Shown here: positions 9,531-54,665 of the stretch, piece by piece
Layout: the number at the start of each line of letters is the position of its first letter
Position numbering within the stretch: position 1 is the first letter of the stretch
Assembly (NCBI GenBank): GCA_026770705.1
Contig: JANJGN010000001.1
Coordinates: 194,184,001 to 194,248,000 of the forward strand
DNA length: 64,000 nucleotides
Direction: 5' to 3'
Source: Isurus oxyrinchus
Lineage: Eukaryota
Notes under the pieces: generated by a model
What the model was told of the DNA's origin: nothing
Database searches by the model: none
Seen by the model: only the letters and a program-made list of their open reading frames with translations
Translations under genes and position numbers: made by a program

Positions 9531-9548
9531 TGATTTTGTGAAGTTAAA

Positions 9549-9918: not shown

Positions 9919-10191
<273 letters not shown>

Positions 10192-11635: not shown

Positions 11636-12119
11636 AATTTTTCTGCACCGTTAAACATGCTTCTGGAAATCACCATAAAGAATGATGACTTGGCCAAAGC
11701 ATTAGAGATTTATAGCAGTAACAGAGCTACACCTTAGCATGAGCCAGTATCTTCACTGATAGTAGGGAGAAAACTGTCATTCAGGTTTGTCAACAGAAAA
11801 CCAAAAACCAGCCTTTGTTTATATACGACCTTATTTCATGTCTCAGAAATACCTTCAATTTCTTCTGAGAAGTACATCGACTATTGTTATGCGATATGAT
11901 TAAACAATTGCAATATCAATTATAATTGTCACCCAACATTTATAACATTATTAAGAGAAGTTAACAACCGCCAGGGAACCACATTTCAGTGGCAAGTGGC
12001 TGTTTTCAGCTGTTTCGGTTGTTTTGCCAGGGCTTCTGTCAGTTCAGACCCATCAACTTGTGGAGGCTTACAGAAAGAGTCCATTCAGACCACCTGCTTC
12101 TGGAACAGAGGTGTTTTTA

Positions 12120-12498
12120 GTTATTCATTCATGCGATATGAACATCACTGGCACTGCCAGCATTTACTACCAATCCCTAATTGCTCTCTGAGTGGCTTTC
12201 TAGGCTATTCGGGGGCAGTTAAGAGTCAACACATTGCTGTGGGCCTGGAATCACTTGTAGACCAGACCTGGTAAGGGCAGCAGATTTCCTTCCCTAAAGG
12301 GCATTATGAATAATAAAAGGGAATTTTATGATAAGCTGGTTATTTCATGATCATTGTCGTGAATCTAGCATTTTACTCCATTAAATTGATTTTAAATGCC
12401 ACTAGCTGTCATGGTGGGATTTGAACTCATATCTCCTGAATATTAGTCCAGGCCCCTGGATTGTGAGCCCAGCAACATTACGATTATGCTACTGTCCC
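12120..12498 (-). mobile_element. tRNA-derived SINE with Deu-like core (SacSINE1-like)
   Basis: B box GAGTTCAAATCCC (12416-12428, -); core ccagacc..cacagcaatgtg.ttgactcttaactgccc; 3' tail shared with LINE family A. Confidence 0.75.
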
Positions 12499-12499
12499 C

Positions 12500-13155
12500 T
12501 ATCATCTTCTTCCAAGAGGTTGCAGATATCTGTAACTCGTTGCTTTGGAGACACTTCTGTTCAGAGACATCAAAGAAGCTGACCCTTAGCCTTTAGACCC
12601 TGTGATGAGGGTTTCGCCTCCTTCAAGGTGCAGCTCTGTGTCCAGCCCCTCTGTTCCACCCAGCCATGGAGAAACCAGCAGCTGTTGCTGTTGGGGTTGC
12701 TGCCCCTGTTGCTGTGGCTGCTAAGTTGGAGCAAGCTGCACCTCGTTCTCAGAAAAAGTACAGAAAACATGGCCCCCAGGGAGGCCTCACAGGCAATAAA
12801 CTGAAATTACCCTCAGTGGTATCCAGGGTACTTGATATAAGTGGCACAAAGTTGCTGTCCCTAACAAAATCAGTGAATTTAGACTGAAAGAATTGCCCCT
12901 TTCTGCACAAGCCTTTCACTGTGGCTGTCCTTTATAATGCTTATGCCAGGACAGTTTCACTCTGTAATGAGTTCCCCCGTGCACTCACCTTCTCCAATCT
13001 GGTGAGACGCAGATGCAGTGTGGAGCCTGTGCATTGTTAGGAAAGAGGGATTCCATGACTAAAAAGGCTCTTCATTGCTTTTAAAATTGCCTCAACTGAT
13101 TTCTCACCCGGTACACTCCAGAACCCACCTCTACCTGGCTGGGATAATTCTGCCC
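12500..13155 (-). mobile_element. Harbinger element end with degenerate transposase N-terminus
   Basis: TIR-like ataattctgccc at the right end; - strand RVSFFDVSEQKCL..VTDICNLLEED resembles the HARBI1-like N-terminus. Confidence 0.55.
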
Positions 13156-13534
13156 ATTGAAGCTGAGATTCTTGCACCTTTTTTTAAAAAAAAAGAATAG
13201 ATAAAAATTTTAATGTCTTTGAAAGAGCGTGTGGCGATCCAATTAGTTTTCTATTGCTTTAGCCCCGATAGTCAGATGATGTGCTGAATGGAGTCCTCCT
13301 GTATTGTAAGCCTCTACAGTTCGATGCCCCTGAATTGGAAGAAGCCCCGGAGAAACAGCATAAACAACTGAAAAGAGCCTTTCACACTGTTTGTCAGAGA
13401 ATTCTGCTGATAGCCCATCAAAGTTACAACTGGATAATCCCAATGGACTTTCAGAGTCATAAATTCTACATTGCAGTTTAGCACATTAGGAGAAAATAAG
13501 AAATCTACCACTTTAAGTGGTAGCAATTCAAACA

Positions 13535-13740
13535 GTAAATGTTGGAAATACTCAGCAGGTCTGGCAGCATCTGTGGAGAGAGAGAAACAGAGTTAACCTG
13601 TTTCAGGTTTCTTCAGAACTCCTTGAACTGAAACGTTAATTATTTTTCTCTCTCCAAAGATGCTGCCAGACCTGCTGAGTATTTCCTGCTTTTTCTGGGG
13701 TTTTTTTCAGATTTTCAACCTCTGGAGTATTTTGCTTTTG
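13535..13740. mobile_element. Head-to-head inverted Penelope-like fragments next to a splice acceptor
   Basis: ggaaatactcagcaggtctggcagcatct and agatgctgccagacctgctgagtatttcc are perfect reverse complements; CTGAAGA core on - at 13610-13616. Confidence 0.75.
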
Positions 13741-13775
13741 TCCAATTAACACAGTGTTTCTTCTCTCACTACCAG

Positions 13776-13950
13776 GTAGAAACAATCGGAGATGCCTATA
13801 TGGTTGTGTCCGGGCTCCCAGTACGGAATGGCAAACTCCACGCACGGGAGACCGCCAGAATGTCCTTAGCATTACTGGAAGCAGTCAAATCATTTAAAAT
13901 ACGACACAGGCCCAATGACCAGCTGAAGCTAAGAATAGGAATCCACACTG
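13776..13950 (+). CDS. NPR2: NPR2/GC-B-like exon (175 bp)
   Basis: accag|[58 protein letters not shown](G)|gtaaat; contains the GTP-specifying Glu and second metal Asp. Confidence 0.95.
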
Positions 13951-15781
13951 GTAAATTATCTTCATTCAAGTCACAGATCTCTGTGGGGAATATTCAAATT
14001 TTCTTGATAGATTTCACTGTCCAGTTGGGTTGAATGGGAACAAAATTTCACCCAAACAATTCCTAACACCTGGGTTCAAATTGCGCAGAAGTTGCACTTT
14101 TGCTCTCTGGTTATAATTAATATTCACCTGGAGGAGCACTGCACCATAATGATTAGGAAGATCCAAGTCTGTGTTGCCTTAACTGATCTTAGCAGGAGGA
14201 AACACTAAGGGAATACAATATGTCTAGGAATGGGAAAACAATCAGCCAGCATCCCTCTCCTGTAAAGATTCACATATATAAAATGGGCATTTCGGTGAGG
14301 TGCCAAAGGACTGCAAGCACCTATAAAACTCTGCTCCAAAATAAATCAGTGCCTTTAGGAAAGAAGCAAACTAGATTTTTTTTAAAATCCTGCTGATGTG
14401 AATAAAACATTTTCATTGCAGCCAAGTGTAGACACCTAACTGAAGAATATTTAGTTATGAAGATAGCTTCAGAGTTAGGGCTGTTTACTTCAGTGAATTA
14501 AAGGCAGAGAGTGGATCCAATGGAGGCTTTAAAAACAATAATGGATTAGACATATTTTATGACATGGAGAGGGACTGTATGGATAAAGAGAATATGTAAG
14601 CAAAGTGCTAGATTCAATGGCAGGAACTAATCACGCTCTGGAGTAGACTGATGGAATATGTGATGTGTAAACATTGCTGCAGCCTTTTAAAATACAACTT
14701 TTCAAGTTCCTGAAAGCAGGAAACATTTTATTTATAAATGAGAAATTGTTAATTAGCTGGGATTATGTGGGGTTATAGACTACTAGCCTCAAGCTTTGTT
14801 TGCTTGCATTGGGGAATTGGAGAGCAGTTCCCAGTGTTCATCCTACATTGGTCATGAGTGTTTGCTCTGCTTTCATCTCTTCCAGAACCTACTAGGATTT
14901 TTGGGCTTGAGGGGTGATGTAAGTGGTTGTGCTGTGTCCAAGTGAAGTGCACTTGATGGGCTTGATAGTCTTTTTCTGCACTTATTTTCAACTGATAATA
15001 TGAAATAACATTGAGGCATTTTCCATAATAACCTTTAATGCAGACATTAGCACAGACATGAGTGAGCACAGCAGTTTTCCATTGCCAACTGCTGCCCTTT
15101 CGAGGCCTTTCTGCTGCTGGTCAGCTATGTGTGCCTGCCAGCAGCTCTTTCAGTCCTTTGTCAGCTCTGCTTTATATCTTTCGTAATCTTGTTATATCCT
15201 ATTTCTATCACTTGAAATACTTCTGTGCTTCAGACCTTGCTTCATTTGTAGCTTGGAGCCCACTCAGTGACACTGAAACAACTCTAAATGCCAGCGAGGG
15301 CCAAAAGTGTTAAAACTGCATGAGTGATGTGGGTGGTGACAGAGTGGCCAGAATAAAATGGTGGACCCGACATCAGCACGGTTTACTGTTACTCTCAGAA
15401 GCAGGCAGCAAAACCATCTGCTGAACTGAGTCTCAATGTCTTCAGAGACACATGTGCATTCTTATTTATGTGCTGCACTAGATCCAAAGGCAATTCTACA
15501 TTTAAAGGCAGTATTATGGTATAAATGTGGTACAAAGCTTCAGTTTCACCTGGGGATTGAATTAATTTTTACTTTGCAACGTGGAATTAGGAAAACTGTG
15601 AGCAAGCAAATGTGCATAATGGAGTTACTTGAGAAGAAAGAAGACCTTCTAAATGATATATGGGTCGTCACTGTTCCAAATGGATTACAGCAAAAAGCTT
15701 ATTGTTGAGTATTAAAGCTTAAATGTTATGTATGATTAAGAAATAATTAGGAAACCTTTTTCTTTTTCTACCTACGATCAG

Positions 15782-15880
15782 GACCAGTGTGTGCAGGAGT
15801 TGTTGGATTAAAAATGCCACGTTACTGTCTATTTGGAGACACGGTTAATACAGCCTCCCGTATGGAATCTACTGGAGAGG
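15782..15880 (+). CDS. NPR2: NPR2/GC-B-like exon (99 bp)
   Basis: atcag|(G)[32 protein letters not shown](A)|gtaagt; guanylyl cyclase signature. Confidence 0.96.
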
Positions 15881-16123
15881 GTAAGTGGCTGCTTTAAGAA
15901 AGAAAATATGAAATCAAGTTCTGCATTGATACCTTCTTTTATACACCGAAAACTTAAATTATTTTATATATAGCAAATGAAAGGTAGAAGTATGCTATAA
16001 TGAAATGTTGCTTGTGGCATCTAAATATTATAAAGAGAATTTCATTGCATCCAAGCTATTTTTGTCAGCCTGACTGTATTAGGACTTTGATATCTTTCCA
16101 TTCTGAAGGAAGTTTGATTCCAA

Positions 16124-17002
16124 CAGAGATTAAATGCAGCTGATTTTTTACTGAGTTGGTTTACTCCTGCAGGAAGTACAATATAATAGGTGATTTGATT
16201 GATGTTTTTAAGATATTAAAGGGAAGTGAAATGGGAGATAGAGAGAAACTATTTCTTGTGGCTGGGGACTCTAGACTAGGAGACAGAGCCTAAATACCAG
16301 ATCCAGACCTTTCAAGAGTAAAATTACTTCTACACACAAAAGTGGGGTAGAAGTTTGGAACTCTCCTCCATAAATGGCAATTGATGCTGGATCATTTGTT
16401 AATTTTAAATCTGAGATTAATAGATTTATGTTAATAAAAGTTATTAAGGGATATGCAACCAAGTTAATGAAGTCAGTGAAGACAATGGTGTTAGGTCACA
16501 GAGAGACTCAAGGGCCTAAATGGCCTACTTTTGTACATATATACTTGTAACCCTCTACCAATCCCTCCATGTTTACAATCACATAGCCATTTTAACCTTC
16601 TCCAGCCCTACTCATTTCCTGTGTCCCACGCAATCTCAACACTTGCCTACTGTGCATTGCATCCTGCTTCATCTATACTGTAGAACATCCAGTCATCTTT
16701 CCCTCAGGCTCTGTGGCTGTCTTCCTTAAACCCATCCACCTCACCACATTGCTCCTCTAAAAGCCTCCTTTTATTGCATGCAGTAATATTTCCTAACTTT
16801 ACTGCTGAAAGGCCTGGCTCTAGTTTTTAAGCTATATCCCCTAGGCCCAGAATCCAAAACCAGTGGAAATAGTTACTCTTTATCTAGCCTTTCAGTTCCT
16901 TTTAACACCATGAAACCTTCAATCATCCACAAATCACCCATATGTTTTACTTCCTGCAGGAGTAAAGCAATTCCATTAAAAATCAGCTGTGTTTAGTCAC
17001 TG
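16124..17002. repeat. Diverged inverted duplication containing a CR1 3' fragment
   Basis: 16124-16330 is the reverse-complement homolog of ~16795-17002; perfect 19-mer tttactcctgcaggaagta at 16160-16178 and 16948-16966. Confidence 0.7.
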
Positions 17003-18846
17003 TCCTTTCAACTGCTGTCATGCCTCAGGATTTTTTGGCCATTTTTCTGCAGCAAGAATTTCCAAATGAGCTCTATTTAAGTGCTGAAAATATAGGAAAC
17101 ACTCAGCAGGTCATGCAGCATCGGTGGAGATGCTTTTACGTTTAAATGCCATGTTTTCAATTAAAATGGTTCGCAAAGGGCTGGAATTCTCCTTACTATC
17201 ATATACTGGAGCCACTGAGACAAAAGAGAAGATTCTGAGCAGAATTTCCTTGGAGCTGCTCATTCTCCGTCACTCCAGCGAAGCTATCATGGTGGCATGA
17301 AAATAGGTCTGACCAGCGTGTGTCGGCATTGAAGATGTATTTACACAACATCTGAGGATAACAGTTCACTTGTTATCTCAGCTCAGTCTCCTATTTACAC
17401 TGGACCCAAGAGAAATGTGTTATTTTCCGAGACTTCGATTAATTCCATTCCCCCTCCCTCTCTATAACACCCCCCAGTCCCTGCCCAACTGTGAAGTGCT
17501 TTGGGGCAGTTAGCTATGTTATGCAGGTCGTCGTTCATTATAGCTTCAGCCTGCTCCCATTTTTCCAGCAGAGGGTTACAAGGCATGCTTCTGCCCCAAG
17601 TTAGTGGTGAGACACTTCACTATAATTAATTTGTGTGCACTTGGTGCAATTGGGAGCCTGATTTCAACTTTACTGTTGTTGGTTAAGCTTCTTAGGGTTT
17701 AGGAAACTCAGCAGCAAAATGGAGACTGGAGCAGCCAGCTGCAGAAGGCAAGTGCTATTTCTAGCCACCGCTTGTGAGCCAGCAGCAGAACTGCCTTCCC
17801 ACCTCCTTGACCCCTCAAGCAAACCTTCTGCCAATCCCAGCCTCTCCCTACTGCTATGACATGCTGACCTCCCCATCAACCTGCAATCCCAAGCCACTGG
17901 CCAAACCCTACCCCACCCAACCATACCCCGGAGCCCCCAGCCCCCTCAACTTCCCACTTCAACCTGTAACCTTTCCCTCCTTCCCAGTTGCTGCACCGGC
18001 CCCTGTCTCTCATCTGAGATCTTCCCTGATTGCTGTGGATCAACCACAATGGTGCTCAGCTGCGGCTTTCTGTCACTGGCTTTCCACTTTGCAGCCGGCC
18101 AGATTGTCAGTCTGGCCAGCATCCAGGCAGGAAACAGAGTGAAAAAAAAACAGATAATGAGGCCCGGACGTTACATTTGGCAGGACCTCCATGTCGCTAG
18201 GATTTCTTGGTTTCCTCCCCACCCCGACCCCACTACTGCTCTCTCACAGTCTCTCTTCCCTTCCCTGTATATATCGGAGCCTTTCCATCTATTTGTGTAA
18301 CATTGCTGCAGGAGTGCAGCAGAAAGGATCTCTCCCATGTGAATTTATATCCTATCGATTGGCCCCAAAGAGCATTGTTACTGTTCTATGCGCCTTGCAG
18401 CAAGTAGATGAAAAGAAATCACACATCACAGATTTAAGCAGTGTGCAAATTTATGAACAATTTTTTCTGTAATAGGAGTCAGAAGAAAAACTTCTAAGGA
18501 AAGCAATCATTTTATATTTAAATGTGTTAGCACTTATATTTGTAACATTCTTTGGACCAATTTACAAGCTACAAACAGATATTAGGACAGCCTGTCCTAG
18601 AATTTGACTTTGAGTTCTATACCCCTGATATTCAATCTTCAACTTTATGTGGCTGCAAGAGCCTTCTGAGGCTGAATAACAATTCAAGCTAAGTTAAAAC
18701 CTTAAGCTAAACAGTCCCTGAAATTAGAACCATATCAAGAATTTGGCAGTAAAATTTAATGCTCAAGAGTCAATTTAAAGAAAATTCAGTCTAAATATAT
18801 GCCTGTCTTCATCCTGCCATTGACATTTTACCTCTTGATTTGTTAG

Positions 18847-18938
18847 CACTGAAAATCCACGTGTCCTCAACGACCAAGAATGTCTTGGATGAGTTCGGAA
18901 ATTTTGAACTGGAGCTCCGTGGCGATGTTGAAATGAAG
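18847..18938 (+). CDS. NPR2: NPR2/GC-B-like exon (92 bp)
   Basis: tgttag|(A)[30 protein letters not shown]|gtacct; HVSSTTK is NPR2-like rather than NPR1-like. Confidence 0.94.
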
Positions 18939-19024
18939 GTACCTTTATGTTTCAAGATATGTTCAACACATCCCAACCACAATCATGAATGACAGTTATG
19001 GAAGTCCTTATTGCTGTTTTTACA

Positions 19025-19640
19025 AATCATAGAAACTTGCAGTTCGAAGGAGGCCATTCAGCCCATTGTGCCTGTACTGGCTCTTTGAAAGAGCAGCCTT
19101 GCCGAGTCCCACATCCCCATATTCTGTCTGCAGCCCTGTAAGTTTCTCATCCTCAAGACCAACTCCCTTTTAAACTTCCATAACCTTTTCAGGTAGAGAG
19201 TTCCAGATCCCAACAACTCTGAGTCAAAAGTTTTCTCCTCATATTCCCTTCAGATCTTTTGCCAATGATTCTGAATCTATGGTCTTTAGTTGTTGACCCA
19301 CTCACTAGAGGGTATAGATCTCCTCTGCCTACTATACCAAAACCTTTCCTCATTTTTAAAGCCAGTTAGGTCACCTCACAACATTCTCTGAAAGGAGAAT
19401 ATGCCAAACGTTGCCAACCTCTCCTCATATCTGAAATTCCTTTGCCCCAGTGACATCCTGGTAATCCCCCTTTACACTGTTTCTAAGGTCTTCACATCCT
19501 TTGTGAAACATGGTTCCCAGAATTGACCAGGATATTCTAGCTGAGGGTGGTGATTTCTCTTCACTTTTGCATTCGATTCCTCTTTTTAAAAACCCAAGTG
19601 CCCTATAAGCTTTTATAAACCACCTTATTAACTTATTCTT
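19025..19640 (-). mobile_element. CR1-type LINE 3' fragment
   Basis: aggaggccattcagccc (reverse of the CR1 tail hairpin) followed by degenerate RT C-terminal sequence. Confidence 0.7.
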
Positions 19641-21880
19641 TATTTATTCCAGAATTTGTTAAATGTTTAAAGATTTAAGATAATAAATTTTGTTGGGTTC
19701 ACGGTGAGGGAGGACAGAGTTCTGGCAAAATTAAATTGCAGCAGAGGAGCTGGAACATTCTGTGGCATACTTGATTATTCCCTTGATACAGTGCTACCTG
19801 CTCCTTTGTTTAAATGATCCGATGCCTGAGATTTGGAATTGATAAACTGTCAAGTCAGAATGCTGGACAGGACCTTGCAACACTGGCACTAAATATTTAT
19901 CCTTTATCCCCAAAATGCCCAGTAATACCACTGAGCTTCCCACATTGGCATAGGCCTCCTCCCCAGTGCGAGTGAAATATTGACGGGGCAGGATGAGGCC
20001 CTTAACTGAGCATTAATCTGCTTCTTAAAGGCCCCAATAGGCCATCTGATTCCTCCCCCACCCCCTTAAAATTTCAGACAGGTGTTGGGGGGGGGTGGGT
20101 GGTTAGGTGGCGAGAAGGCCATCGGCTGGATTTTATTTGTCTCCCGTCTTCAAACCCTCTGATGGGAGAGCGTAAAATTCAGTCCTATGTAGAGTGAAAC
20201 CAATTGTAACATGCCTATTACCACCCTGTATGAGATCGTCTAACCTTTTAGGACATTCTTGATCTACATGGTTCAGTTAGCCATTTCTTAATCAGCTGAA
20301 TCATTGGGGAAAACTACTTCCAGTTTTGTTTTGGGATTGACTGGCTTTTTTTACTGGTTTTGCAATGAATGCATTCTTCATATCTATTAATATTTTCCTT
20401 CATTCTCCAGTCTAGCTTCTAGGTTGTAATATTTTTATTCTGTGCTCGCAATCTAATTAAATTGTTTGCTTGCACTTGTGTCATCCGTATCTCTCACATT
20501 TTAAAATTCTGGGGTTATGTCTCTTCTCAATCTTCTTTCTGCAATGAAATGAAATCCTGTCCTACTCTAGGACAGAATTGTTTCTGCCTGACTTGCAGAT
20601 AAATTGATCCACTCCTACACAGTTGCTGCGGGCTAAATAGGTCTTCCCAACTATTGATAGAGAAAAAAAGGAAAATAATAGGAGATGGGAATCAGAAAAG
20701 AAAAAAAGCAGTAAAAAATTGTTCCTTTCTACTATTTATAATAACAATAATTTATAATAATATTAATGCAACCGCATTTTGAATGACTGCACAAAGACCA
20801 AGGTTAGAGAAGCATTCCAACTGCTTCATATGTCATCCTTGACAGATAAGTTTATGATGGTTGAATGAGCAAGATGGTTCACTTGGTTCCAAAGCAAACT
20901 GAACCACTTGCATCAAATCTAAGCAAGCAACATGCACATTCAGGTTAACGGCCAATCTCACCAATATAGAAAAATCACATCAATTGACATTTTTGAAAAA
21001 TATAATTAAACCCACATGTGAAACAGACTGTTTTGCATTTCCATTCAGAAGTGATATGTGTGCAAATTGATAATTTGAACTGCTAAGATCCTCATGGATT
21101 CCTTCAGCTCACGGCTGTAATAAAGTGTTGGCTCAGTTCCCAGTTTCCATTTTGCTATTACGGATAAACAGCTGACTCAAAATCAATGCAGCTAATCGGA
21201 GTGCACTCCATTTATACTTTCTCAAATACATTATACTAATGTGGAAGAGTTCAGGTTTAGGCATTTTTATATCCAATGTATTCAGATGCTTTCAAACAAG
21301 CCTTAAAGACAAATGTCAAACAGTTAGGAATAGTAACATGACGTAAGGATTACTGTAAAAAAGCAGGACACAAAAATCTGACCAATGTTCTCGTGAACCA
21401 TTTAAATTGGCAGGTACAGCTACAGTTCATTAATTTAAAGGAACAAAATGTGCTGCTATTTTGTTTACCCACAATAGCAGTTCCCATGAGTTCATCAGTG
21501 TGAATATTCAACAACGCTGATGTACCCTTCACTTCAAATTGCATTTAGGCATTTTGTGGAAAGTTTGAAAAATTTTGGCTTAGCTGAGACTCATGTTCTG
21601 GCTGAAAAGATGGTTTGAGCTAAACATCATTAGCTTATATTATATTATATTAGTTCTATGACATGTTAGGCATTAATTTATCAGACACACATTAAAAACA
21701 TCACTTATTTTGATTGTTATATTTGGTATACATACAATATTTATTTCTCCATAATCAAGGGAGTTGGATACATAAATATGGTGCTAATGGCTAGGATTTT
21801 ACCAGCCCCCAGATGGTGGGCGGGGAGGTGAGGGGAGTGGTGGGGGTAAGTAAAATCATGGGGTGCAGCATTGGCAAACG

Positions 21881-22508
21881 ACTAGCCATATGAATACTGT
21901 GGCTACAAGAGTAGGCCAAAGGCTAGGAATCCTGTGGTGAGTAACTCATCTCCTGACTTCCCAAAGTCTGTCCACCATCTACAAGGCACAAGTCAAGAGA
22001 GTGATGGAATACTCTTCACTTGCCTGGATGAGTGCAGCTCCAACACCCAAAAAGCTTGACACCATCCAGAACAAAGTAGCCCTCTTGATTGGCACCCCAT
22101 CCACAGACATTCACTTCCTCCACCACCGACGAACAGTGGCGGTAATATGTACCATCTACAAGATGCACTGCAGAAACTCACCAAGCCTCCTTAGACAACA
22201 CCTTCCAAACCCACGACCACTACCATCTAGAAGGAGAAGGGCAGCAGACAGATGGGAACACCACGACCTGGAAGTTCCCCTCAAAGTCACTCACCTTCCT
22301 GACTTGGAAATATATCGCTGTTCCTTCACTGTCGTTGGGTCAAAATCCTGGGACTCCTCCCTAACAGCATTGTGGCTGTACCTACACCACATGGACTGCA
22401 GCAGTTCAAAAAGGCAGCTCATCATTACCTTCTCAAGAGCAATTAGGGATGGGCGATAAATGCTGGCCAGCGATTTCCACATCCCGTGAATTCATTTTGA
22501 AAAAAAAG
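21881..22508 (+). mobile_element. LINE family A 3' fragment
   Basis: MEYSSLAWMSAAPTPKKLDTIQNK peptide; same 3' tail as 1051-2549. Confidence 0.85.
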
Positions 22509-23018
22509 GATCTTGTTGGGACATTTGACTGGCAGCAGGACTGGAACTGGAGAGGCACACAGCCAATTATCTTCATTAAAGGCCCAATTGGGGGTCATTT
22601 TAATTCTGCAATCAGTATTTTGCCATTTGTGGGGCAACCCCCTGCCACATGGGGTTGGCTGCCAGCTAAATGGAGGAAGTCTCCTGGCAACAGGTGACAG
22701 CCTACAATACAAAAGGGCTCCTAATTTGGCAATGTCACTCAGAAATGTCACAGTATGGCTGGTGTGAGAAGTGGTAAAAATATTACACTGATGTAGCAAA
22801 TGGTACTCTCCTGACTTGAGAGTTAAGGCATGTTGTAGGGGCAGAGTTGGGAGTGCTTTACTCTCCACTATACCTGACCTGCATTAAACTAATGCTGATG
22901 CTTGATGCCTGAAATGGGAAGAATTCCATTCCTAATGGAAAGGTCCCTCACCATGATGAGCACAAAGTGCATTTAAAGAAATGGCTTAGATACTTAATGG
23001 CACCTTGTTAGTTTTTGT

Positions 23019-23680
23019 AGAACATAGAAGCAGAAGTAGGCCATTCAGTCCCTCGAGCCTGTTCTGCCATTCATAGAGATCATGGCTGATCTGTATCATA
23101 ACTCCTTCTATCTGATTTGGTTCCATATCCTTTTATGTCCTTGTCTATCAAATATCTTTGACTTCAGATTTTAAATTATTAATTGAGTTAGTATCTATTG
23201 TTTTTCATGTGGGAGAGATTTTCCTAACCTCACTTTTAAATGGACTGGCTCTGATTTTGCACAAGTGTCCCGTTGTCCTCGACACCCCAACAGCAGAAAG
23301 AGTTTCTTTCTAGCTACCCCATCAACTCCTTTCAAAATTTCATTCAAATCCCACTATGACCTTCCATATTCTAGGGAATACATGTAATCTCACCCCATAA
23401 TCTGACTGTTGTAGCCCTGGTGATGTTCTGGAAAATTTGCAATGAACTCCTTCCAAGGTCCATATATCCCCTTTGGGAAGCAGTGCTGAGAACTGTAGAC
23501 AGTACTTCAAAGACTGGTTGAGAAACTTCCTCCCTTTTACTATTCTATCCCTCTAGATATAAAGGCTAACATTCCATTAACTTTTTTGATTTTTTAAATC
23601 TGACTGCTACATTAGTGATCTGTGTACATGAACCTATTAACCTCTTTGAGCTGCTATTGTTCCTAACTTTTCACCATTTA
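23019..23680 (-). mobile_element. CR1-type LINE 3' fragment
   Basis: agaacatagaagcagaagtaggccattc (reverse CR1 tail) plus degenerate body. Confidence 0.7.
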
Positions 23681-24422
23681 AATGAAGCTTCCAATATAGC
23701 AGTAATTAAGTGTTGGACATGCATTTCCCACCATATAGGTAGAGGCAAACTAGTAAGCCCACAACAGAAAAGGCAATGCAATTTATGCATACTTAAATAA
23801 GGAGCTGAATTCAGGAAAACCAGGTCTGCATGAGGCCTAGCCAATGTAGCACCACCAAAAAGGTAAGTTTTAAAACAATGCTTACTGAATGTGGAGCTAG
23901 GAGGAGTGGGAGTGCTGCTCCCATCTCCATTGCATTGCTGCAGATCATTGTCCCCCAGTCCTTCATTGCCCCACTTCTTTCACTTTCCTTCCAGGCCATC
24001 TTTCCTTTCCCTTTAAGCACTTACCAGAGGTGGGTGCCATGTATGCCAACAGGTTATTGAATTATGGAGGCCATCACTGCTAAATCTTGTCTTTGGTTAG
24101 CTTCCACATGGGCACTTTTCAACAGAAGCTATCAATTAGCATTTTGTAGTAGGAACCCTGCCTTACTTCTCCTCAGCCTTTCTTGTTTCACAGGACTGAG
24201 ATCAGTTCCGGTGTCCATACATGCTGCTTTAGTTGAGGAAAGCTAACTATGCAAATCCAAGGAATCAAATCTGAAACTATTCTTGTCAATATGGTTCAGT
24301 GCAGTCATCAAGCAAGCCAATGGGAGAAATAGTGCCCATACTTCTTCTAAAGACTAGCAAATGTTTAAGGATTTACAATGGCGTGAGCACCTGAGTAACA
24401 TTTATTTTGTCTTCTTTGAAAG

Positions 24423-24485
24423 GGCAAAGGCAAATTGAGGACCTACTGGCTGCTTGGTGAGCAAAAAGATGTTCCCGACATCTAA
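24423..24485 (+). CDS. NPR2: NPR2/GC-B-like terminal coding exon with stop
   Basis: ctttgaaag|GKGKLRTYWLLGEQKDVPDI*TAA; in frame with the preceding ...VEMK. Confidence 0.94.
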   Translation, partial: GKGKLRTYWLLGEQKDVPDI

Positions 24486-24727
24486 CCTGGTGTCTGGTGT
24501 GAATTGCTTGTATGTTATTATACTGCAGAGCAGTGGTTATACAAACTGTAGTTTATTTGTTACCAAAACAAATTTTGGCTATGTTTATTTCTGGAGAACA
24601 GATCTTATAGAAAATATCTGTAGAAAATATCTAGATGTATCCCAGGTATATTTTATACCTGAACAAAGCTGCAAAACAAGTCATTTTTATTAAGATCTTT
24701 TTTCTTCTTAGCTGAATACTTTTCAAC

Positions 24728-40679: not shown

Positions 40680-42600
40680 AAGCATGTAGCTCTTGCTTTC
40701 TCCACCTACCCTCACCACAGCCCTGCCCTTATGCCTTCTGCTTTCAGATGCCCAAGAACACTATCCTCATCAGGCTGTGGTGGAGAGCATCAGATGGATG
40801 AGCATGAACACAGGTATAATTCAGAAACACTATTATTCAATTTCACATGTGCAGTCACCAGCTCAAATAATGCAAGTACTTCAGACATAGCTTTGAGGCA
40901 AGGTAGGCAGGTGGTGAGACACTGGGTATGAGTGACCCGCAGCCAGGTGAGGCTTCAAGGATAGCACAGGTGCCCACTCATTGGAGGACTAAACTGTACA
41001 TGAATTCCACTGCAGAGGACTCAGGTGAACATGATAGGGTGTATACAGAATAAGTATGCAAGCTGAAATGGTTGGTGCGCTGGCAGCCTGACATAAAGCC
41101 TGCATGCAGTGTCAAGGACCATGGAAGAATCCAGCATCAACTTAGCATAGAGCTTTGCACAGTGCCTGGAAGCTACCCTTTCCAGCATAGAAATGGAGAC
41201 CAATTCTGTTAGTACACTTGTGAACCCAACCATGATGTAGTGTCTGATGGGTAATGTCTCAGCTTCCATTGCAACACAAGCAGAAGCCACCCAACAATTG
41301 GGTCGTGCAGTAGAAGCTCATATTTCTCATGCAATGTTAACTCGTTGCCATGCAAGCTCAGGCTGTTGCCATTGTGCTGCAGATAGCAATGTTCATAGGT
41401 GTATACAGAATCTTACAGTAGTCCATCAGTGTGACCACCAACAGGTTAATGGATTCCTGAGGCTCTGCCCTTGGGGAGTGGCAGCAACTCTGTGGAGAAA
41501 AAACTTGCTTTCATCTTCCTGGATGACAATATTCTTCCTCCCATTGCTGCCAAACTGCCAGCGCCCCTGCTCTGGCTAGTCAGCCAGCCAACCCAGAGTG
41601 CTGCCCATACTGAGTAGGTGCAGCCTAAAGCCAGGTCTACTCTGCTCAGGGCTGCTTGAGGTCATCCTGCAAAGCCATCGACAGTTTCCTCCAGTTAGTG
41701 TCAATACTGTTCCAAAGCCATGCTGCAACCACTGGGGGAGAACTGTTTTGGAACAATTGGACAGGCAAAGGCACACAGAGAATAGGCTCTAAGAAGATGC
41801 ACAAGGGGAATGTTGATATGCAATGTGGTATGTTTGATTTATACATTTGGAATGGTTATTTTTTTGATGACTTTTATTTTTGCATTGTAACCAAGCTGAT
41901 ACTGTGATGGTCAGCAACAGATGGAAGATAATGTGTAGGACAATGGGGAATTATGGTTACATTTGCTGGTATCAGGTAAATTGTTCATGGGCCATCTGGC
42001 CAGAAAGCTGTTCATGGGTCGTGCACAAGATTCAGCAATTGTGTGGTCAGATGATAATCCTGGTTACCCATTGTTGTTTGCTGGGGTGGCTTAAATGCAG
42101 AAGGCACAGCAGCCACAGAATGGAGGTATCATGATGGCTGCTAGGATACAGGGCATTGATCTGCATGCATCACTGCATTTGGTCTCACACCAGCTGGAGA
42201 TTGAGGGAGTAGACCCTTTTTCTATTTGTGGTGGCCAGTAGCAGCGTATGTGCCATCAATGGCAGCCTGCACCATGGGGAAGCCTGCAATCCTCACAAAC
42301 CCACATGCCTGCTCCACCTGCTCAGTTGCGTTGAAGGGTCATGAGGACTCGAAACGTCAACTCTTTTCTTCTCCACCGATGCTGCCAGACCTGCTGAGTT
42401 TTTCCAGGTAATTCTGTTTTTGTTTTGCCTGCTCCACCTGTTGCTCTCTGGCCAAAGAGAACAAAATATCAACTCTCTTTAAATAGAGAGTGTCAGTGAC
42501 GTTCCTTACAGTGAAAGACAAACTACAAGATGTTCAACTGCCTCCAGCTCCAGCCTAGAAAGAACCCAATGCATCACTGATGTCTCCTTCACAGCCACTG
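40680..42600. mobile_element. Old Harbinger remnant (Myb-partner 3' part on +, transposase fragments on -)
   Basis: Similarity to 3040-3640; - strand GFPMVQAAIDGTY..RKRVYSLNLQLV resembles the HARBI1 FP.V.GAIDCTH..RKG..SLNVQ motif. Confidence 0.6.
42321..42426 (+). mobile_element. ~105-bp Penelope-like hammerhead module with 14-15-bp TSD
   Basis: Flanked by (t)gcctgctccacctg at 42306-42320 and 42426-42440. Confidence 0.85.
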
Positions 42601-42677: not shown

Positions 42678-43297
42678 GAGCAGGATTTTCAGGTCATTAG
42701 GCGGGCGCGGTGGGCGGGCCCGGGAGCAGACAGAAAATGGGCCTTCACCCGCGATTGGCCCCCGACCATGAAAGGCGCACTGAAAGGCTCAGCACTACTG
42801 GGGCAAGGGAGGGAGGAGGGCGAGTGCTGAAGTCAGCGTGGGCACGGTGGAGCACCCAGAGAGCTGAAGAATTTTAAAGACAAAAATAAGCGGGATGAAA
42901 TTCCGAACAAGTTTCGACTCACAAGAATCACTCACCTAAACTGACTGAACAAAAAATCTGCCCAAGCATTTTTATTTTGTTAAATTAACATTGGAAACCT
43001 CATCCCGCCCTTGGATGAGGTTTCCTCAAAAATCCAAAGACTACCTGGCCAATTCATCCTCCCGCCAACCATAATGTGGGATGGGCAACAGAAATTCCAA
43101 GTAATTTACAAACTAATGGCCTTAATAGGCCTCTTAATTGTTGGCGGGCTCGCTGCTGACTGTCGCGCGCGCCTGCCGACCGAAATATCTGCGCGAGTGC
43201 GTGATGACGTCGGGACATTCGCCCGACATCATCGCGCACTATTTTACGCCCAATTGGGTCAGGCATGCACTCGCCAGCAAGACATAAAATTCTGCCC
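42678..43297. mobile_element. CpG-rich Harbinger-type MITE, TSD AAT, inserted in a - strand Penelope-like hammerhead fragment
   Basis: TIRs GAGCAGGATTTT / GGGCAGAATTTT; removing it restores agagttaatgtttcaggtc..tcatcagaa. Confidence 0.8.
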
Positions 43298-44569
43298 AAT
43301 GTTTCAGGTCTGTGTCCTATCATCAGAATATCTCAGCAGTGACTACACTTCAAAAACTGCTTCATTGGTTGTAAAGCGCTTTGAGACATCCAGTGGTCCA
43401 GTGGGCTCATATTGTCCAACTTCTCGTTCCCTGAGTCCCATTCCAGGACACCGCCAATCACCTAACTTCTTCGTCTGACCTCATGTTAGCTGACATTGTA
43501 ACTGTTTCTTTCTCTTCAGCCGTTGTCCCTCCTTCCTTTAAATCAGCTGTCATAATTTTGCTCCTCATTAATCCAACCCTTGACCCCAATGTCTTTTGAA
43601 ACTACCATCCCACCTCCAACCTCCCTTCTCCAAAGTCTTTGAATATGTTGTCATCTCCCAAATGTCCTGATGGCCAAAAATGGATAAACTTCCATCCAAT
43701 TTTCCTGCTAAAAGGGGTTGCTGTAGTGCTTATCCTGTTCTATTGTATTGAAAGCAATGAGGAATTGCTCCTCCTGGTCTAGCCATCATAGGCTAAAAGT
43801 AACAGCTGATGAATTGGACATTTTAACATTGTACAGTGTGTATAAATTTACAGCTGGCATGAGTTAGCTCAGGTTGGGGGTGGGGTATAAATTCACTGTG
43901 TTGAAAGATTTTGAACGTTAATTGTTTTTGTTTAATCTATTTAACTGTTATTGTAGTATTGGCTACAGTGCCAGAATTGAATCTTTCTTTTTTGACTGTT
44001 TAATCTTAAAGTAAGCCTATTTTATCTCTGTTCACTTAATGGGAAGAAGTAGCTGGAAGGGTTTGGAACATGATCCCACATTCAAAGCATAAAACAAGTC
44101 CAGGACCTGGCAAATCTAAAGGGGACATTGTATCAGGAACTGGAGTTTGAGGAATCTATGTGACAGGTACTTCAATGGGAAGCCCTAAATCTGGAGAGGT
44201 CCAATTTATACATTGGATATCTTCCACAGAGAGTATGCAAAGTTATTACACAGTTATGTAGTATTACATTCCATTGCAGCACAGCCTTTTGGCCCAGCAT
44301 GTTCCCACTGATTTTAATGCTCCACATGAGCATCTTCCCACCCTTCTTCATTTAATTCCATCAACATATTCTATTCTGTCAATATATTCCTTTCTCCTCC
44401 TATGTTTATCTAACTTCCCTTTAATGTATTGATGCGAGTCACCTCAACTGCTCTGGTGGTAATGAGTTCCACAATCTAAATCCTCTCTGGATAAATGATG
44501 TTCACCTGAATTTTCATTGAATTTATCAGTGTATTAATTCCTTATATTCATTACCCCTAGTTCTAGTCT

Positions 44570-47472: not shown

Positions 47473-49658
47473 TGTGATGAACCCCAAAGTGAAAAAAAAC
47501 TTACCCTTCTAAATCGGAGTTCGGAGGCTGAAAACTCCAGTTCCCAATGGGCCTCTGGGTTTCTGCGCACATGCAGCTTTAGAGTGGCGGCACACGTGCA
47601 GTCTGTGTTTTTTTCCGGCCTCCGAGTTTTCTGCACATGCACTGGCCAAAGAATGACACACAGGGAGAAGGTCACAAACAAATAAGAAGGTCCCAAACCG
47701 GCGAGTGGGATAGAAAGCGGTCCCAAGTAGACAGTCTAGTTAAGGGACAAGGAAAGGAATCTGAAACAGGTCCTGTTAAGTGAAGTAAAAAGTAAGAAGC
47801 AGAAGAAAAGCCTCCAGATTAAAGAGACAGAGCTGCAAGGAGCAGACTTGGAATTAAGTGGGCTTGAGAGAAGCCAGAAGATCCAAGGAGACAGATGAAA
47901 GTTGGTGACTCTTTACTACGGGCCTTTGGAATGTGGTGTTCTGCTTGGCACAGCCAAAAATCTGACAGCGTGCATGGAAGATGAAGCTTGAATGCATCCA
48001 GAGGAAAGGAGCATCAGAAAGAGAGATTGAAATCCTGGAAGTTGATCCTAATTGAAGATATCCGAGTGATAGCCTCGTTTGGGAAAGAATGTCAAGGTGA
48101 ATTCCTCAAGCATGGAAATTGGAACCCCGCTTAAGAAAGACAGAGGGAGAAATTTGTTGTTGGATGTCATGGCAGGTGCGAGCGGACAATATGGAGAGAA
48201 GGCCAAAAATCGGTTCCACAACATCGTGAAACAAGTTTGCAATTGTCCACTCTGCCCATCAATGGCAGGCGGCATTTCCCACCGCCGGACATCGGGAAAG
48301 TCATTTTAATACATCTGTATGCCATTATTAGCCCAGCTCACCAGCTCCCCACGCTGGATCATCCGGGCACGCCAACATGTTTCACAACAGCGTTTCAAAG
48401 GCTTGCACTGAGCGAGAAGAACTTTGTGGGGAATTCAGAGGTGAGTGCTCAGTAACATTATGCAGTGCTCGTGAGGTTTGCCCGTTTGACTTCAAGGTTG
48501 AGGCGCCACAAATTCAAGTGAGGGCGCAGGCAAGTGGCCTATTCCCAGCTGGCTGAATGTTTCCCAGTGTTGTGCCAGGGCAAGGGCTGCAGTGCAGGTA
48601 TGGCGAGTTGCGGGGTCGAGGCAGCATGCTGTGAGGCAGGTTGGGAGGGGGGAGTGCAAGGGCTGCACTGCATCTGAGGCCAATTGCAGGGGCAAGGCAG
48701 TGCAGTCTGATGGTAGTGCACAAGCACTACAGTTTTCAAGGGGTGGGGGGGGGTGGTGGGGGGGTTGGTGGGGGGTGGGGGAGGTGGCAGGGAGGGAAGC
48801 AGCCACACAGTAGGGATACCTTGGAGGGACATTTTTTAAATGAAGCCTCCACACTGTCCGCACTCTTTTTTAAAAATTAAGTCTCCACACTGAGGATGTG
48901 GCTGCTGACACTCAAGCGGCGGCCTCAGATTGCAACAAGAGAAGGTAAAATGAGGGTCATGCTGCAACTCACACTTTGGTGGAACAAACCACTGGGATGT
49001 TGAAAATGAGGTTCTGCTGCCTGGACTGATTTGGTGGGGCCCTGCAACACAGTGCACAGAGGGTATCATACATCACTGTCACCTGCTACACCCTTCACAA
49101 CCTGGCATTACAACAGAGAGAGGAGCCATTTGAGGAGGAGATGCAGGAGCTGGAGGTCTCCTCCAATGAGGAGGACATTAACGGGGATGAGGGTGAGGAG
49201 GTCCTCGATGGTGAGGATGATGCCAATGAAGCCATTGTACTACCCAGGTGTGGCAGGTGCGTCCGGGAGCTCCTATTTGTGGAAGTTGATGATGATATGC
49301 AGTGAGGAGGCTCAATAAGTCCTCACAATGCATCTGACAATGTTTGACTCCAGTCTGGCTTATGGCATCACACATACCCTCTGTGATAACGGCCCCATCA
49401 TGGAGACACAGCAATTGCCCATAGTTCTTGCATTTCAGGAGGATGATGATGACATGCAACAGGGACACTCCATAGATCCTCACACAGCTCATGTGAATGT
49501 CTGACTCCTGTCTGGCTGATGGCAGCTCACTTGTGCTCTGTGAACAGGGTCATATCATGGAGATGCAGCAGGAAATTTCAACTTCTCCTGATCCTATGGC
49601 ATCCTTCATGAGCTGAACACTTCAGGACCACACTGTCACCTGGCACAGATGTTGATGA

Positions 49659-50427
49659 TAAAAACAAAAAACTGCGGATGCTGGAAATCCAAAACAAAAA
49701 CAGAATTACCTGGAAAAACTCAGCAGGTCTGGCAGCATCGGCGGAGAAGAGTTGAAGTTTCAAGTCCTCATGACCCTTCCACAGAACTGCGTAGAGTTCT
49801 GTCGAAGGGTCATGAGGACTCGAAACGTCAACTCTTTTCTTCTTCGCCGATGCTGCCAGACCTGCTGAGTTTTTCCAGGTAATTCTGGTTTTGTTTTGGA
49901 TTTTCAGCATCCTCAGTTTTTTGTTTTTATCTCTGTGATTCTCCTTCCGATGGATACTCGAAGGCTCCTCACTGACCCCTTTTGGAGAAGGGGAAGTTAG
50001 AGTGAGATTGTGTTGTCTCACACCCCTCTCATGTCTACACTGTTGGAGGCCAACTATGGCGTCAGTGATGAAGTTCAGCCTGTGCAATAGTGCACTGATG
50101 TCCTGGACCAAGGTTCTCCATGGTGGCCGCCATCCTACTAGTGGTGGCCTTGGTGCATTGCATGATGGTGCGATCATTTTGGACTGAAAGCAGGCGAACT
50201 CCTCCACAATGCCTAGCAATCTGAGGACTGCAGTTGTCATCCCTTCCTGCTTTGTTTAAAATTAATTCACGGGATGTGAGCATCACTGGCTGGACCAGTA
50301 TTTATTGCCCATCCCTAGTTGCCCTTGAGAAGGTGGCGGTAAGTGGCCTTTTTGAACTGCTGCAGTCCATGCGCTGCCACTCCTCTTCAAGAAATGCCTA
50401 CCTTGAAGAAGTTTTGTTCCTCTCTGC
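49659..50427. mobile_element. Penelope-like palindromic hammerhead insertion with 15-bp TSD and a captured local segment
   Basis: TSD cacagatgttgatga at 49644-49658 and 50428-50442; ~130-bp inverted arms around 49789-49794. Confidence 0.85.
49793..49835 (+). ncRNA. Putative minimal type-I hammerhead ribozyme, A6U core variant
   Basis: AGAGTT-CTGTCGA-A-GGGTC-ATGAG-GACTC-GAAAC-GTC-AACTCT: 6-bp stem I, 5-bp stem II, palindromic ACGT stem III; activity untested. Confidence 0.55.
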
Positions 50428-51407
50428 CACAGATGTTGATGAGATGGGGGGGCCAGCCACACCTCAGAGATGCAAAGAGCTCACACAGAGAGAATGACAG
50501 ACTCTGTGCCGCCGGCCCAAGACATTCTGGCAGCAATGATAAGCCCCATCAAGGTGCAGGCATGACTGATGTGTCCAGTGACTGTGAAGGCGCACCATCA
50601 GTGTGTTGGGAAGGCTGCACAAAGCACAGGGAAGAAGCCCTGGACTGGGACACCTGCCTTTATCTAGTGCAGGGTCCATGGTTTCATGTCAGAGTGCCAC
50701 AAATACTGTTCATCAGTACAAGGAGCCATAGGCAAGGAGAAATTCTTGGGAGCTTATTTACAAGTGATTAACTCCCGTGCCCAGGCTGTGCAACCACATC
50801 TTCTTAAACTTCCTTGCCTTCCTATGTCTTGGTGTTCCCCGGACATCCACAATGGAATTGGAGGCCGCCTGCTGACTGTGACGCCCCGTCTGTGATGACC
50901 TTGGCGGGCATCTTCTGAAGGGCTGAAGCCTGGAGGGCCCCAGCCTGCTTTCGGTGCCCTGTTATGTGACAGTGGCACCCTTTTCAGCCTGTGAAGCTGG
51001 AGCTGCTGGCATCACAGGAAGAGGGGATTCGGATGAATTTGAATGGGCTGGACACTCTCTGAGTCACCTGAATGGATGGCCCTGTGATGTGTACCTGCTG
51101 ATTCTCCTTCCTATGGATACTTGAAGGCTCCTGACTGACCCCTTTTGGAGAAGGGGAAGTTAGAGTGAGATTGTGTTGCCTTACACCCCTCTCATGTCTA
51201 CACTGTTGGAGGCCAACTATGGCGATGAAGTTCAGCCTGTGCAATAGTGCACTGATGTCCTGGACCAAGGTTCTCCATGGTGGCTGCCATCCTACTAGTG
51301 GTGACCTTGGTGCATTGCATGATGGTGCGATCACTTCGGACTGAAAGCAGGCGGACTCCTCCATCATGCCTAGCAATCTGAGGACTGCAGTTGTCATCCC
51401 TTTCTGC

Positions 51408-53864
51408 TTTGTTTAAAATTAATTCACGGGATGTGGGCATCACTGGCTGGACCAGCATTTATTGCCCATCCCTAATTGCCCTTGAGAAGGTGGCGGTGAG
51501 TGGCCTTTTTGAACCGCTGTAGTCCATGTGTTGTAGGTACACCCTCAGTGCTGTTAGGGAGGGAGTTCCAGGATTTTGACCTAACGACAGTGAAGGAATG
51601 GCGATATATTTCCAAGTCAGGATGGTGAGTGACTTGGGCGGGGGGACTTCCAGGTGGTCGTGTTCCCATCTATCTGCTTCCCTTGTCCTTCTAGATGGTA
51701 GTGGTCATGGTTTTGGAAGATGCTGTCAAAGGAGCCATGGTGAATTCTTGCAGTGCATCTCGTAGATGGTACACACTGCGCTACTGTGCGTTGGTGGTGG
51801 AGGGAATGAATGTTTGTGAAAGTGGTGCTAATCAAAAAGACTGCTTTCTCCTGAACAGTGTCAAGCTTCTTGAGTGTTGTAGGAGCTGCACTCAGCCAGG
51901 CAAGTGGGGAGTATTCCATCACACTGCTGGATTGTGTCCTGTAGATGGTGGATAGGCTTTGGGGAGTCAGGAGGTGAGTCACTCATCACTGGCCAGTCCA
52001 GTTCAGTTTCTAGTTGATGGTAATCCCCAGGATGTTGATAGTGGGGGATTCAGCGAAGGTAGTGCCATTGAATGTCAAGGGGTGATGGTTGGATTCTCTC
52101 TTGTTGGAGATGGTCATTGCCGGACACTTGTATGGCGTGAATGTTACTTGCCACTTGTCAACCCAAACCTGGATACTGTCCAGGTCTTGCTGCATTTGGA
52201 CATGGGCTGCTTCAGTATCTGAGGAGATGGGAATGATGCTTAACATTGTGCAATCATCAGTGAGCATCTCCACTTCTGACTGGAGCTGAGATGACTGACC
52301 TCCAACAACCACAACCATCTTCCTTTGTGCTAGGTATGACTCCAACCAGTGGACCATTTTCCCCCTGATTCCCATTGATTCCCGTTTTTCTAGGGCTCCT
52401 TGATGCCACACTGTCAAATGCAGCCGTGATGTCAAGGGAAGTCATTCTCACCTCACCTCGGGAGTTCAGCTCTTTTGTCCATGTTTGAACAAAGACCGTA
52501 ATGAGAACTGAGTGGCCCTGGAGCAACTCAATCTGGGCATCAGTGTTGATGGCCCCTTCCATTACTTTACTGATGATCAAGAGTAGACTGATGGGTCTGT
52601 AATTGGCCGCATTTTACCTGTCCAGCTTTTTGAGTACAGGACACACCTGGGCAATTTTCCACATAGCCGGGTAGATGCCACTGTTGAAGCTGTGCTCAAA
52701 CAGCTTGGCTAGGGGCCTGGCAAGTCCTGGAGCACAAGTCTTCAGTATTATTGCCAAAACATTTTCAGGGCCCACAGCCTTTGCAGTATCCAATGCCTTC
52801 TGCCATTTCTTGATATCAGATGGAGTGAATCGAATTGGCTGAAAACTGCCATCTGTAATGCTGGGGAACATCCACTCAGCACTTCTGGCTGAAGACTTAG
52901 CAAATGCTTCAGTCTTATCTTTTGCGCTGATGTGCTGGGCTCCTTCATCATTGAGGATGCGGATATCTGTGGAGCCTCCTCCTCCAGTGGGTTGTTTAAT
53001 TGTCCACCACCATTTATGAACGGATGTTGCAGGACTGCAGAGCTTAGATTTGATCTGTTGGCTGTGGGATCATTTAGCACTGTCTATCACTTGCTACTTA
53101 TGCTTTTTGGCATGCAAGTCGTCCTGTGTTATTGCTTCACCAGGTTGATAACTCATTTTTAGGTATGCCTGGTGCTGCTCTTGCACTCTTCATTGAACCA
53201 GGGTTGATTCCTTGGCTTGATGGTAATGTTGGAATGGGAGATATGTCAGGCCATGAGTTTACAGATTGTGTTTGAGTACAATTCTGCTGCTACTGATGAC
53301 CCACAGCGGCTCATGGATGCCCAGTCCTGAGTTGCTAGATCTTTTCAAAATCTATCCCATTTAGCACGGTGGTAGTGCCACACAACACAATGGAGCGTAT
53401 CCTCAATGTGAAGGCCGGACTCCAACTCCGCAACAACTGTATGGTGGTCACTCCTACCAATACAGTCATGGTCAGATGCATCTGTGGCAGGCAGGTTGAT
53501 GAGAATGATGCCAAGCATGTTTTTCCCTCTTGTTGGTTCCATCACTACCTGCCGCAGACCCAGTCTAGCAGATTTAGGACTTGGTCAGTAGTGGTGCTAC
53601 CGAGCCATTCTTGGCGATGTACTTTCAAGTCCCCCACAATGGAAAATTCTGTGCAATTGCTGCCCTGAGTGCTTCCTCCAAGTGATGTTCAACATGGAGG
53701 AGCACTGATTCATCAGCTGAGGGAGGGTGGTATGTGGTAGGAGGGTTGCATGTCCATGTTTGACCTGATGCCATGAGACTCCTTAGGGTCAGGTATCGAT
53801 GTTGAGGGCTCCCAGGGCAACTCGCTCCTGACTATATACCACTGTGCCACCACCTCTGCTGGGT
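51408..53864 (-). mobile_element. LINE family A, long degenerate copy with APE endonuclease and RT remnants
   Basis: EPTRGKNML..IGRSDHHTV (endonuclease), WKIAQVCPV, LTDDC; family A 3' tail at ~51410-51490. Confidence 0.9.
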
Positions 53865-54665
53865 CTACGACAAGATTTCCGTATCTCTCTTTTGCCTTGC
53901 TCACCTTCATTGCTTTCCATTTCTCTCCTGGTGTTTGACATCTTTTGATGATCTGCTTCTATCACTGCTTGTTTGTCCCTACAACCACACCAACCCCCTC
54001 CACTTCTCTCCCCCCACCCAAACCACCCCCACCCCCCACAAACCTTAAACCAGCTTATATTTCACCTCTTCCTTGGATTCACTCAGTTCTGTTGAAGGGT
54101 CATGAGGACTCGAAACGTCAACTCTTTTCTTCTCCGCTGATGCTGCCAGACCTGCTGAGTTTTTCCAGGTAATTCTGTTTTTGTTTTGGATTTCCAGCAT
54201 CCGCAGTTTTTTTGTTTTTATCTCTGTGTTTAATTGACTGCCACTGCTCTTCAAGAAATGCCTACCTTGAAGAAGATTTGTTCGTCTCTGCGACAAGATT
54301 TCCGTATCTCTCTTTTGCCTTGTTCACCTTCATTGCTTTCCATTTCTCTCCTGGTGTTTGACATCTTTTGATGATCTGCTTCTATCACTGCTTGTTTGTC
54401 CCTACAACCACACCAACCCCCTCCACTTCTCTCCCCCGACCCAAACCCACCCCCCCCCCCCCCCCACCTCACCCCACACACCTTAAACCAGCTTATATTT
54501 CACCCCTTCCTTGGATTAACTCAGTTCTGTTGAAAGGTCATGAGGACTCGAAACGTCAACTCTTTTCTTCTCCGCCGATGCTGCCAGATCTGCTGAATTT
54601 TTCCAGGTAATTCTGTTTTCATTTTGGATTTCCAGCATCTGCAGTTTTTTTGTTTTTAGTCTGTG
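53865..54665 (+). repeat. Tandem (~1.9 units, 423-438 bp) Penelope-derived hammerhead-bearing repeat
   Basis: Units start at 53865 and 54288; CTGTTGA cores at 54089 and 54527; near-identical apart from a C-rich tract. Confidence 0.85.

Follow-up and report, generated by a model that had tools for sequence, protein, structure and literature searches.

The repeat at 53864-54658 of the window, by which we mean the whole 64,000-nt stretch of Isurus oxyrinchus DNA analysed here, is a tandem of about 1.85 units of 423-438 bp, with two hammerhead motifs of the minimal type-I form at a spacing of 438 nt. We propose that a non-autonomous Penelope-like element (PLE) probably left it behind in an old retrotransposition event. 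Taken by itself, the locus is a decayed repeat of an ordinary sort, and its tandem arrangement is of a known kind; the unexpected part is a U at position 6 of the hammerhead core that runs through the whole family.

Layout of the tandem and its surroundings

The original prediction of a ~423-438-bp unit in ~1.9 copies, with cores at 54089 and 54527 and no long ORF, was borne out: both core positions were confirmed, and no stop-to-stop frame of at least 120 aa overlaps the tandem (Table 1). Unit 1 meets the left flank at a 3-nt microhomology (53864-53866), and at the right edge bases 54660-54665 are common to the element and the flank. Loose contig ends at 54187-54221 in public sequencing runs mark the 3' end of the family.

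Table 1. Coordinates of the tandem, its parts and related repeats in the window.
Feature	Position	Strand	Remarks
Left flank, decayed LINE ORF2	52000-53863	-	weak RVT_1 matches, 52000-52900
Unit 1	53864-54286	+	423 bp; 5'-truncated within the ORF stub
Unit 2	54287-54658	+	372 bp; its last bases are the T-rich tract with which the family usually ends
Deletion joint, unit 1	53936-53940	+	5-nt microhomology TGACA between ORF start and 3' region
Deletion joint, unit 2	54359-54363	+	51-base context identical in both units
Hammerhead motif 1	54085-54123	+	core 54089, CUGUUGA; cut predicted after 54119
Hammerhead motif 2	54523-54561	+	core 54527, CUGUUGA; cut predicted after 54557
End repeat-to-start codon segment	54221-54257	+	bridged by contigs 7 and 8 of X1 and 16 of X15
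ORF stub	54258-54371	+	stops 2 codons past the joint
Family copy, ~105 bp	42306-42440 (element from 42321)		15-bp target duplication; starts just before stem I
Composite family insertion	49644-50442 (element 49659-50427)		15-bp target duplication at 49644 and 50428
Older sister-family hammerhead repeats	3187-3290		more decayed
	9550-9670	-	more decayed
	13540-13740		more decayed
	43290-43340	-	more decayed

The two units differ by 13 substitutions across 357 aligned positions, and the C-rich tract is 15 bases longer in unit 2; blastn of unit against unit, with gaps counted, gives 91.8%. The substitutions are unevenly spread, with 10 in the last 187 positions against 2 in the first 159 (Fisher p 0.043, for windows picked post hoc), and different templates or gene conversion could account for this. 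Over the core and 95 further bases the units are 94% alike, and the five plus-strand family copies of the window are 92-96% alike, the minus-strand copy being omitted because a deletion shifts its ungapped register; the units thus resemble each other no more than they resemble dispersed copies. At one site unit 1 has TG where unit 2 has CA, the outcome to be expected from a CpG that was once present in both and decayed independently.

No Rfam hammerhead matched the tandem at the gathering score or at E up to 10, and TRF did not call the repeat. An exact 25-base pattern gave 0 matches in metagenome, viral and prokaryote contigs, and neither a tRNA head in the unit nor a host gene over the tandem was found. 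An intronic location was rejected: what we take, from catalytic-domain motifs at 5651, 13788 and 15817, to be a receptor guanylyl cyclase-like gene occupies 5651-24500 on the plus strand, has its last coding exon near 24420 and ends near 24.5 kb, about 29 kb upstream of the tandem. In the left flank, the two RVT_1 matches (E 0.0024 and 0.00065) both fall under the curated Pfam cut-off, and 53000-53863 is presumably the endonuclease part of the LINE, judging by its motifs. Going by the usual order of LINE motifs, the frame has an apparent sequence gap at the left edge of the tandem. There is no target duplication at the tandem, the best match being 5 nt.

The unit as a probable internally deleted Penelope-like element

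Four public runs were aligned to 53600-54286, of which three were informative, with 123,323 (X1), 78,501 (X4) and 7,054 (X15) contigs, while X21 gave 5 partial reads only. X15 is an RNA run by our guess, and X4 is a DNA run from the same organism.

The unit reads as an internally deleted PLE in three parts: an end repeat, a 35-codon start of what is elsewhere a longer ORF, and the 3' end. Six contigs of X15 run on through the ORF behind 53940 and 81 contigs of X1 have a different sequence before 53936; since these copies diverge on either side of the joint and overlap in TGACA, a deletion at a microhomology must have fused the ORF start with the 3' region. None of the 24 listed contigs, among some 186,000 pieces, bridges this joint. 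The other join, between end repeat and ORF lead-in, is native to the family, for three of the listed contigs span it, at 9-10 differences. The stub bases 54258-54362 encode 35 residues; these share 91% identity with residues 73-107 of an uncharacterised protein from Heterodontus francisci, whose reading frame continues beyond the joint, where that of the window comes to a stop.

No reverse transcriptase (RT) or GIY-YIG domain of the parent element was found by protein, Pfam, structure and metagenome searches. P0002 gave a match and P0003 and P0004 weak ones; P0002 and P0004 carry no Pfam family, all Atlas structure matches for the parent protein had TM < 0.5, and the metagenome scan for the parent RT was empty. 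A 20-residue match to L001, which has no DNA likeness to the unit, was taken as chance. As no parent RT or endonuclease was recovered, membership of the PLEs is argued from structure and motif. The Penelope origin that had been proposed for the motif is supported, for the motif fits the published minimal-hammerhead consensus except at position 6. The further proposal of a non-autonomous unit agrees with what we find, an ORF stub that encodes no RT.

An abundant and dispersed family

In X1, X4 and X15 alike, contig depth grows in the 3' direction. Summed depth is no measure of copy number; relative to the core it amounts to 0.02-0.21 for the stub, 0.28-0.46 directly behind the joint and 2.3-2.9 in the tail. 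This gradient is the pattern of a 5'-truncated retroelement, and it implies that at most a minority of 3' ends can carry the TGACA joint. Other stub-to-3'-end joints are found among the 15 listed of 239, namely 53899 to 54047 (depth 552 in X15), 53931 to 54083 (398 in X1) and 53932 to 54086 (188 in X4). Most listed single contigs have depths of 14-42, several times less, which suggests that mini-derivatives of the family are amplified. Go-back joints at 54286 and 54267 were considered as circles and rejected, being the natural ORF continuation cut by the ends of the chosen stretch.

The family does not look silent, as it is well represented in the RNA-like run X15. Measured against the peak over the LINE flank, depth in the hammerhead region is 610-fold in X15 and 2.4-fold in X4, and the CpG-decayed variants at 54111 and 54116 make up 2.2% and 0.7% in X15 against 8.9% and 9.3% in the DNA run. 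This pattern hints that younger family members are transcribed, although contigs show neither strand, size nor circularity, nor the present locus. The joint 53899 to 54047 has a depth of 552 in X15 and 15 in the DNA run of the same organism, and this form is a better expressed mini-element candidate than the locus studied here.

Besides the two copies of the tandem, the window holds four further copies of the family. The family is dispersed and its copies are 5'-truncated; some of them show inverted repeats, tails and target duplications, and 15-bp target duplications flank two of three other insertions tested. The copy at 42306-42440 is additionally mutated at core positions 3 and 4. The composite insertion at 49644-50442 has a head-to-head inverted end repeat, a direct end repeat and the ORF lead-in as its tail, and encloses (49933-50371) a 433-bp copy of the neighbouring DNA at 51095-51528 with 19 mismatches; it looks like a capture of local DNA during PLE insertion. 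Three of the older sister-family repeats keep the canonical CUGAUGA core, and that at 13540-13740 is a head-to-head pair.

The 5' edge of stem I (54081-54087), some 35 bases ahead of the predicted cut, is where many copies and contig pieces begin. Several deletion joints fall at this edge as well, and depth rises there by a factor of about four or more. Directly before it stand a pyrimidine tract and CAG; no clean spliced joint is among those listed. In Drosophila virilis Penelope, the end of the intron is described as likewise preceded by a pyrimidine tract and CAG (PMC4209133).

Hammerhead motifs and predicted cleavage

Both motifs have a type-I layout with short stems I and II, an unpaired A between 9 and 10.1, GAAA, an ACGU palindrome and a GUC site. 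In motif 1, stem I has 4 bp (AGUU/AACU), stem II has 5 bp (GGGUC/GACUC), and the G10.1-C11.1 pair is present; in motif 2, G10.1 has changed to A (54535) and an A-C mismatch replaces the pair. The sequence CTGTTGA departs from the hammerhead core CUGANGA at position 6, where both copies have U, and therefore does not agree with the consensus C3 U4 G5 A6 N7 G8 A9. With position 6 left free, the descriptor has 2 matches in the window (49799 and 54089) against 0 in 100 dinucleotide shuffles; the copy at 54527 fails it because its stem II starts with the A-C mismatch. No second hammerhead register or antisense hammerhead was found on either strand.

Changes at position 6 have lowered activity in published tests. 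For the change A6C, activity under 0.1 per min is reported (PMC3088659, PMC7151607), and in a mutational scan single mutants of the CUGA turn had low activity (PMC9901934); none of the position-6 tests cited from these three sources used U6 in a minimal dimer. With ViennaRNA, and with no positive control folded alongside, the pair probability of stem II is at most 0.007 and the double-hammerhead fold lies about 27 kcal/mol above the free ensemble. Monomer folding is no better than that of shuffled sequences (z -0.71). Cleavage in the double-hammerhead fold would be crossed, with core 1 acting on site 2 and core 2 on site 1, so that release of a monomer would need the worse core. Since core 2 carries two defects, the ~438-nt monomer that the original prediction expected this locus to release is unlikely to arise from the present-day sequence, and the predicted active fold is not favoured either.

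A family-wide U at position 6

All six family copies within the window have U6, whereas two older aligned relatives keep CUGAUGA. In X1 and in X15, two of the three informative read sets, the sole T-to-A place is 54138, which puts A at 54092 below 3%; X4 also has one T-to-A place, outside the rows listed. U6 therefore appears to be family-wide and not private decay of this locus. As U6 copies have clean target duplications, U6 templates were mobilised. Stems I and II and the ACGU palindrome are kept across the family, and the altered core means that the motif may no longer cut. Either, then, the U6 core is an active one, or the family multiplied although it could not cleave itself efficiently.

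We found no natural U6 hammerhead among the literature matches listed, and the largest catalogue of PLE hammerhead variants, that of Lunse et al. (2017), may hold one; an A6U passage that came up in the literature concerns twister. A bolder reading, which we regard as distinctly unlikely, is that a very abundant shark PLE family fixed U6 and kept transposing with a motif that still cuts as a dimer, thus a new natural core with perhaps an altered metal preference, and that its short deleted derivatives (the present unit and the 53899-to-54047 form) would be retrozymes being born from an autonomous PLE.

If the motif is dead in so successful a family, PLE transposition would not need cleavage. 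The U6 family and its canonical-A6 relatives share one genome and both left many copies, and the family offers a ready test of whether mobility of a PLE depends on cleavage by its minimal hammerheads. Ribozyme searches keyed to the core would overlook the U6 family altogether, so that counts of shark retrozymes and hammerheads may be underestimates.

Origin of the tandem

Our preferred history has three steps. First, a deletion at the 5-nt microhomology removed almost the whole ORF from one copy of a very abundant PLE family, giving the 423-bp unit. RNA of this mini-element would then have been reverse-transcribed from the normal 3' end by an intact PLE acting in trans, as the unit encodes no RT, and synthesis would have passed one unit by way of a tandem transcript, a template jump or a circle. 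The product landed in the decayed LINE, where no target duplication survives, and the two units appear to have decayed separately, CpG loss included. The two hammerhead motifs would be the two end repeats and, because the unit is short, the 5'-truncated upstream copy reaches back past the joint. Mobilisation by a Penelope RT, as had been proposed, is thus supported as the most likely route, in trans.

A mini-PLE origin is favoured by the identical joint in both units and by undeleted relatives that continue the ORF exactly there. Against it, no donor or sister locus with the TGACA joint was seen among the 24 listed contig pieces. Plain duplication of a one-unit insertion was rejected: the 37-58 bases between the units are native ORF lead-in and are absent from both flanks, a layout that plain duplication cannot give. 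A later deletion, too, would account for the missing target duplication and for the apparent loss of LINE sequence on the left. Published descriptions of PLEs include partial tandems, inverted repeats, tails, microhomology deletions and duplication-free 5' junctions (PMC3846280, PMC8557442, PMC8969392).

Local rearrangement could lead to a similar structure. Here a PLE partial tandem would have been deleted in place, expanded by unequal crossing-over between its end repeats, and then have lost its left end and flank, so that the mini-unit never transposed. Such a course fits the lack of a target duplication (against 15 bp at two of the three other insertions tested), the microhomology at the left edge, the sister locus missing from the listed pieces, and the microhomology deletions reported to inactivate PLE copies (PMC3846280). 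It needs three separate events at one site, however, and the depths of the other stub-to-3'-end joints speak for derivatives that were amplified; we consider it unlikely.

The original prediction saw in the locus a retrozyme-like family. In such a family the U6 hammerheads would cut as dimers, the unit RNA would circularise and a PLE RT would copy it, and this locus would be an aged member. An insertion of more than one unit, with the joint present twice, is what a circular template would give under the published model (PMC4209133, PMC7229834); the conserved stems and palindrome, together with the higher hammerhead-region depth and rarer CpG-decayed variants of X15, point the same way. We nevertheless hold it to be very unlikely and did not retain it: both cores have U6, copy 2 has lost G10.1-C11.1, the units diverge at 13 of 357 positions, only 1.85 units are present, the predicted dimer fold is disfavoured and the monomer folds no better than shuffled sequences. 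The retrozymes of Cervera 2020 are described as carrying canonical, not minimal, hammerheads (PMC7229834), eight of nine Xenopus dimers tested are reported not to have cleaved (bioRxiv 10.64898/2026.07.22.740005), and the X15 contigs reveal neither strand, size nor circularity. Retrotransposition of a non-autonomous PLE thus remains the reading that we adopt.

Comparison with known systems

The minimal-hammerhead consensus for metazoan PLEs was given by Cervera and De la Pena (2014; PMC4209133). The motifs described here resemble it in their type-I form, 4-bp stem I, extra base between 9 and 10.1, GAAA, palindromic C-G at 15.2-16.2, NUH, U-rich surroundings and location in end repeats. Copy 1 also shares the G10.1-C11.1 pair, which copy 2 has lost. 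Position 6 is U here, whereas it is A in all 56 motifs of Fig. S3 of that paper, where the descriptor required the core; none of those 56 is from a shark. A natural change at the same position is described for the hammerhead of phage Bcep176 (PMC3088659, PMC7151607). There it is C, in a single phage motif with measured activity that is low in Mg2+ and better in Mn2+, whereas here it is U, in a high-copy animal family whose activity is putative.

Non-LTR retrozymes of metazoans are defined by canonical type-I hammerheads with demonstrated circles (PMC7229834). The locus shares with them a head-to-tail, PLE-derived, non-coding unit that is a few hundred bases long and has a single type-I motif, its size lying within the 51-972 bp range reported for retrozymes (bioRxiv 10.64898/2026.07.22.740005). 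It differs in having fewer than two full units, in keeping an ORF stub, in being known here from sequence alone, and in its cores, which are minimal and non-consensus, so that neither a complete motif in at least two consecutive units nor a canonical one with loop contacts is present. The original prediction knew of no such elements in sharks. A preprint by Li, Clavereau and Pollet (bioRxiv 10.64898/2026.07.22.740005), in which canonical and minimal motifs were searched, modifies this: from the one genome of a chondrichthyan that it covers it reports hammerhead tandems averaging 363 bp, it traces the tandems back to PLE end repeats, it records cleavage of one of nine dimers, and its supplements may include the U6 family.

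The locus is also like the PLE partial tandems described by Arkhipova et al. (2013; PMC3846280), in which, as here, a 5'-truncated upstream copy supplies direct end repeats; the unit here is short enough for the deletion joint to recur in the upstream copy. Deleted and non-autonomous PLE derivatives such as MRC1 (Craig et al., 2021; PMC8557442) are alike in an ORF start adjoining the end repeat and in a microhomology deletion, and a 5' junction made by microhomology with no target duplication is described for such derivatives as well (PMC3846280, PMC8557442). In the main, the locus is explained by known PLE biology, as a PLE partial tandem of a mini-element and not as a demonstrated retrozyme.
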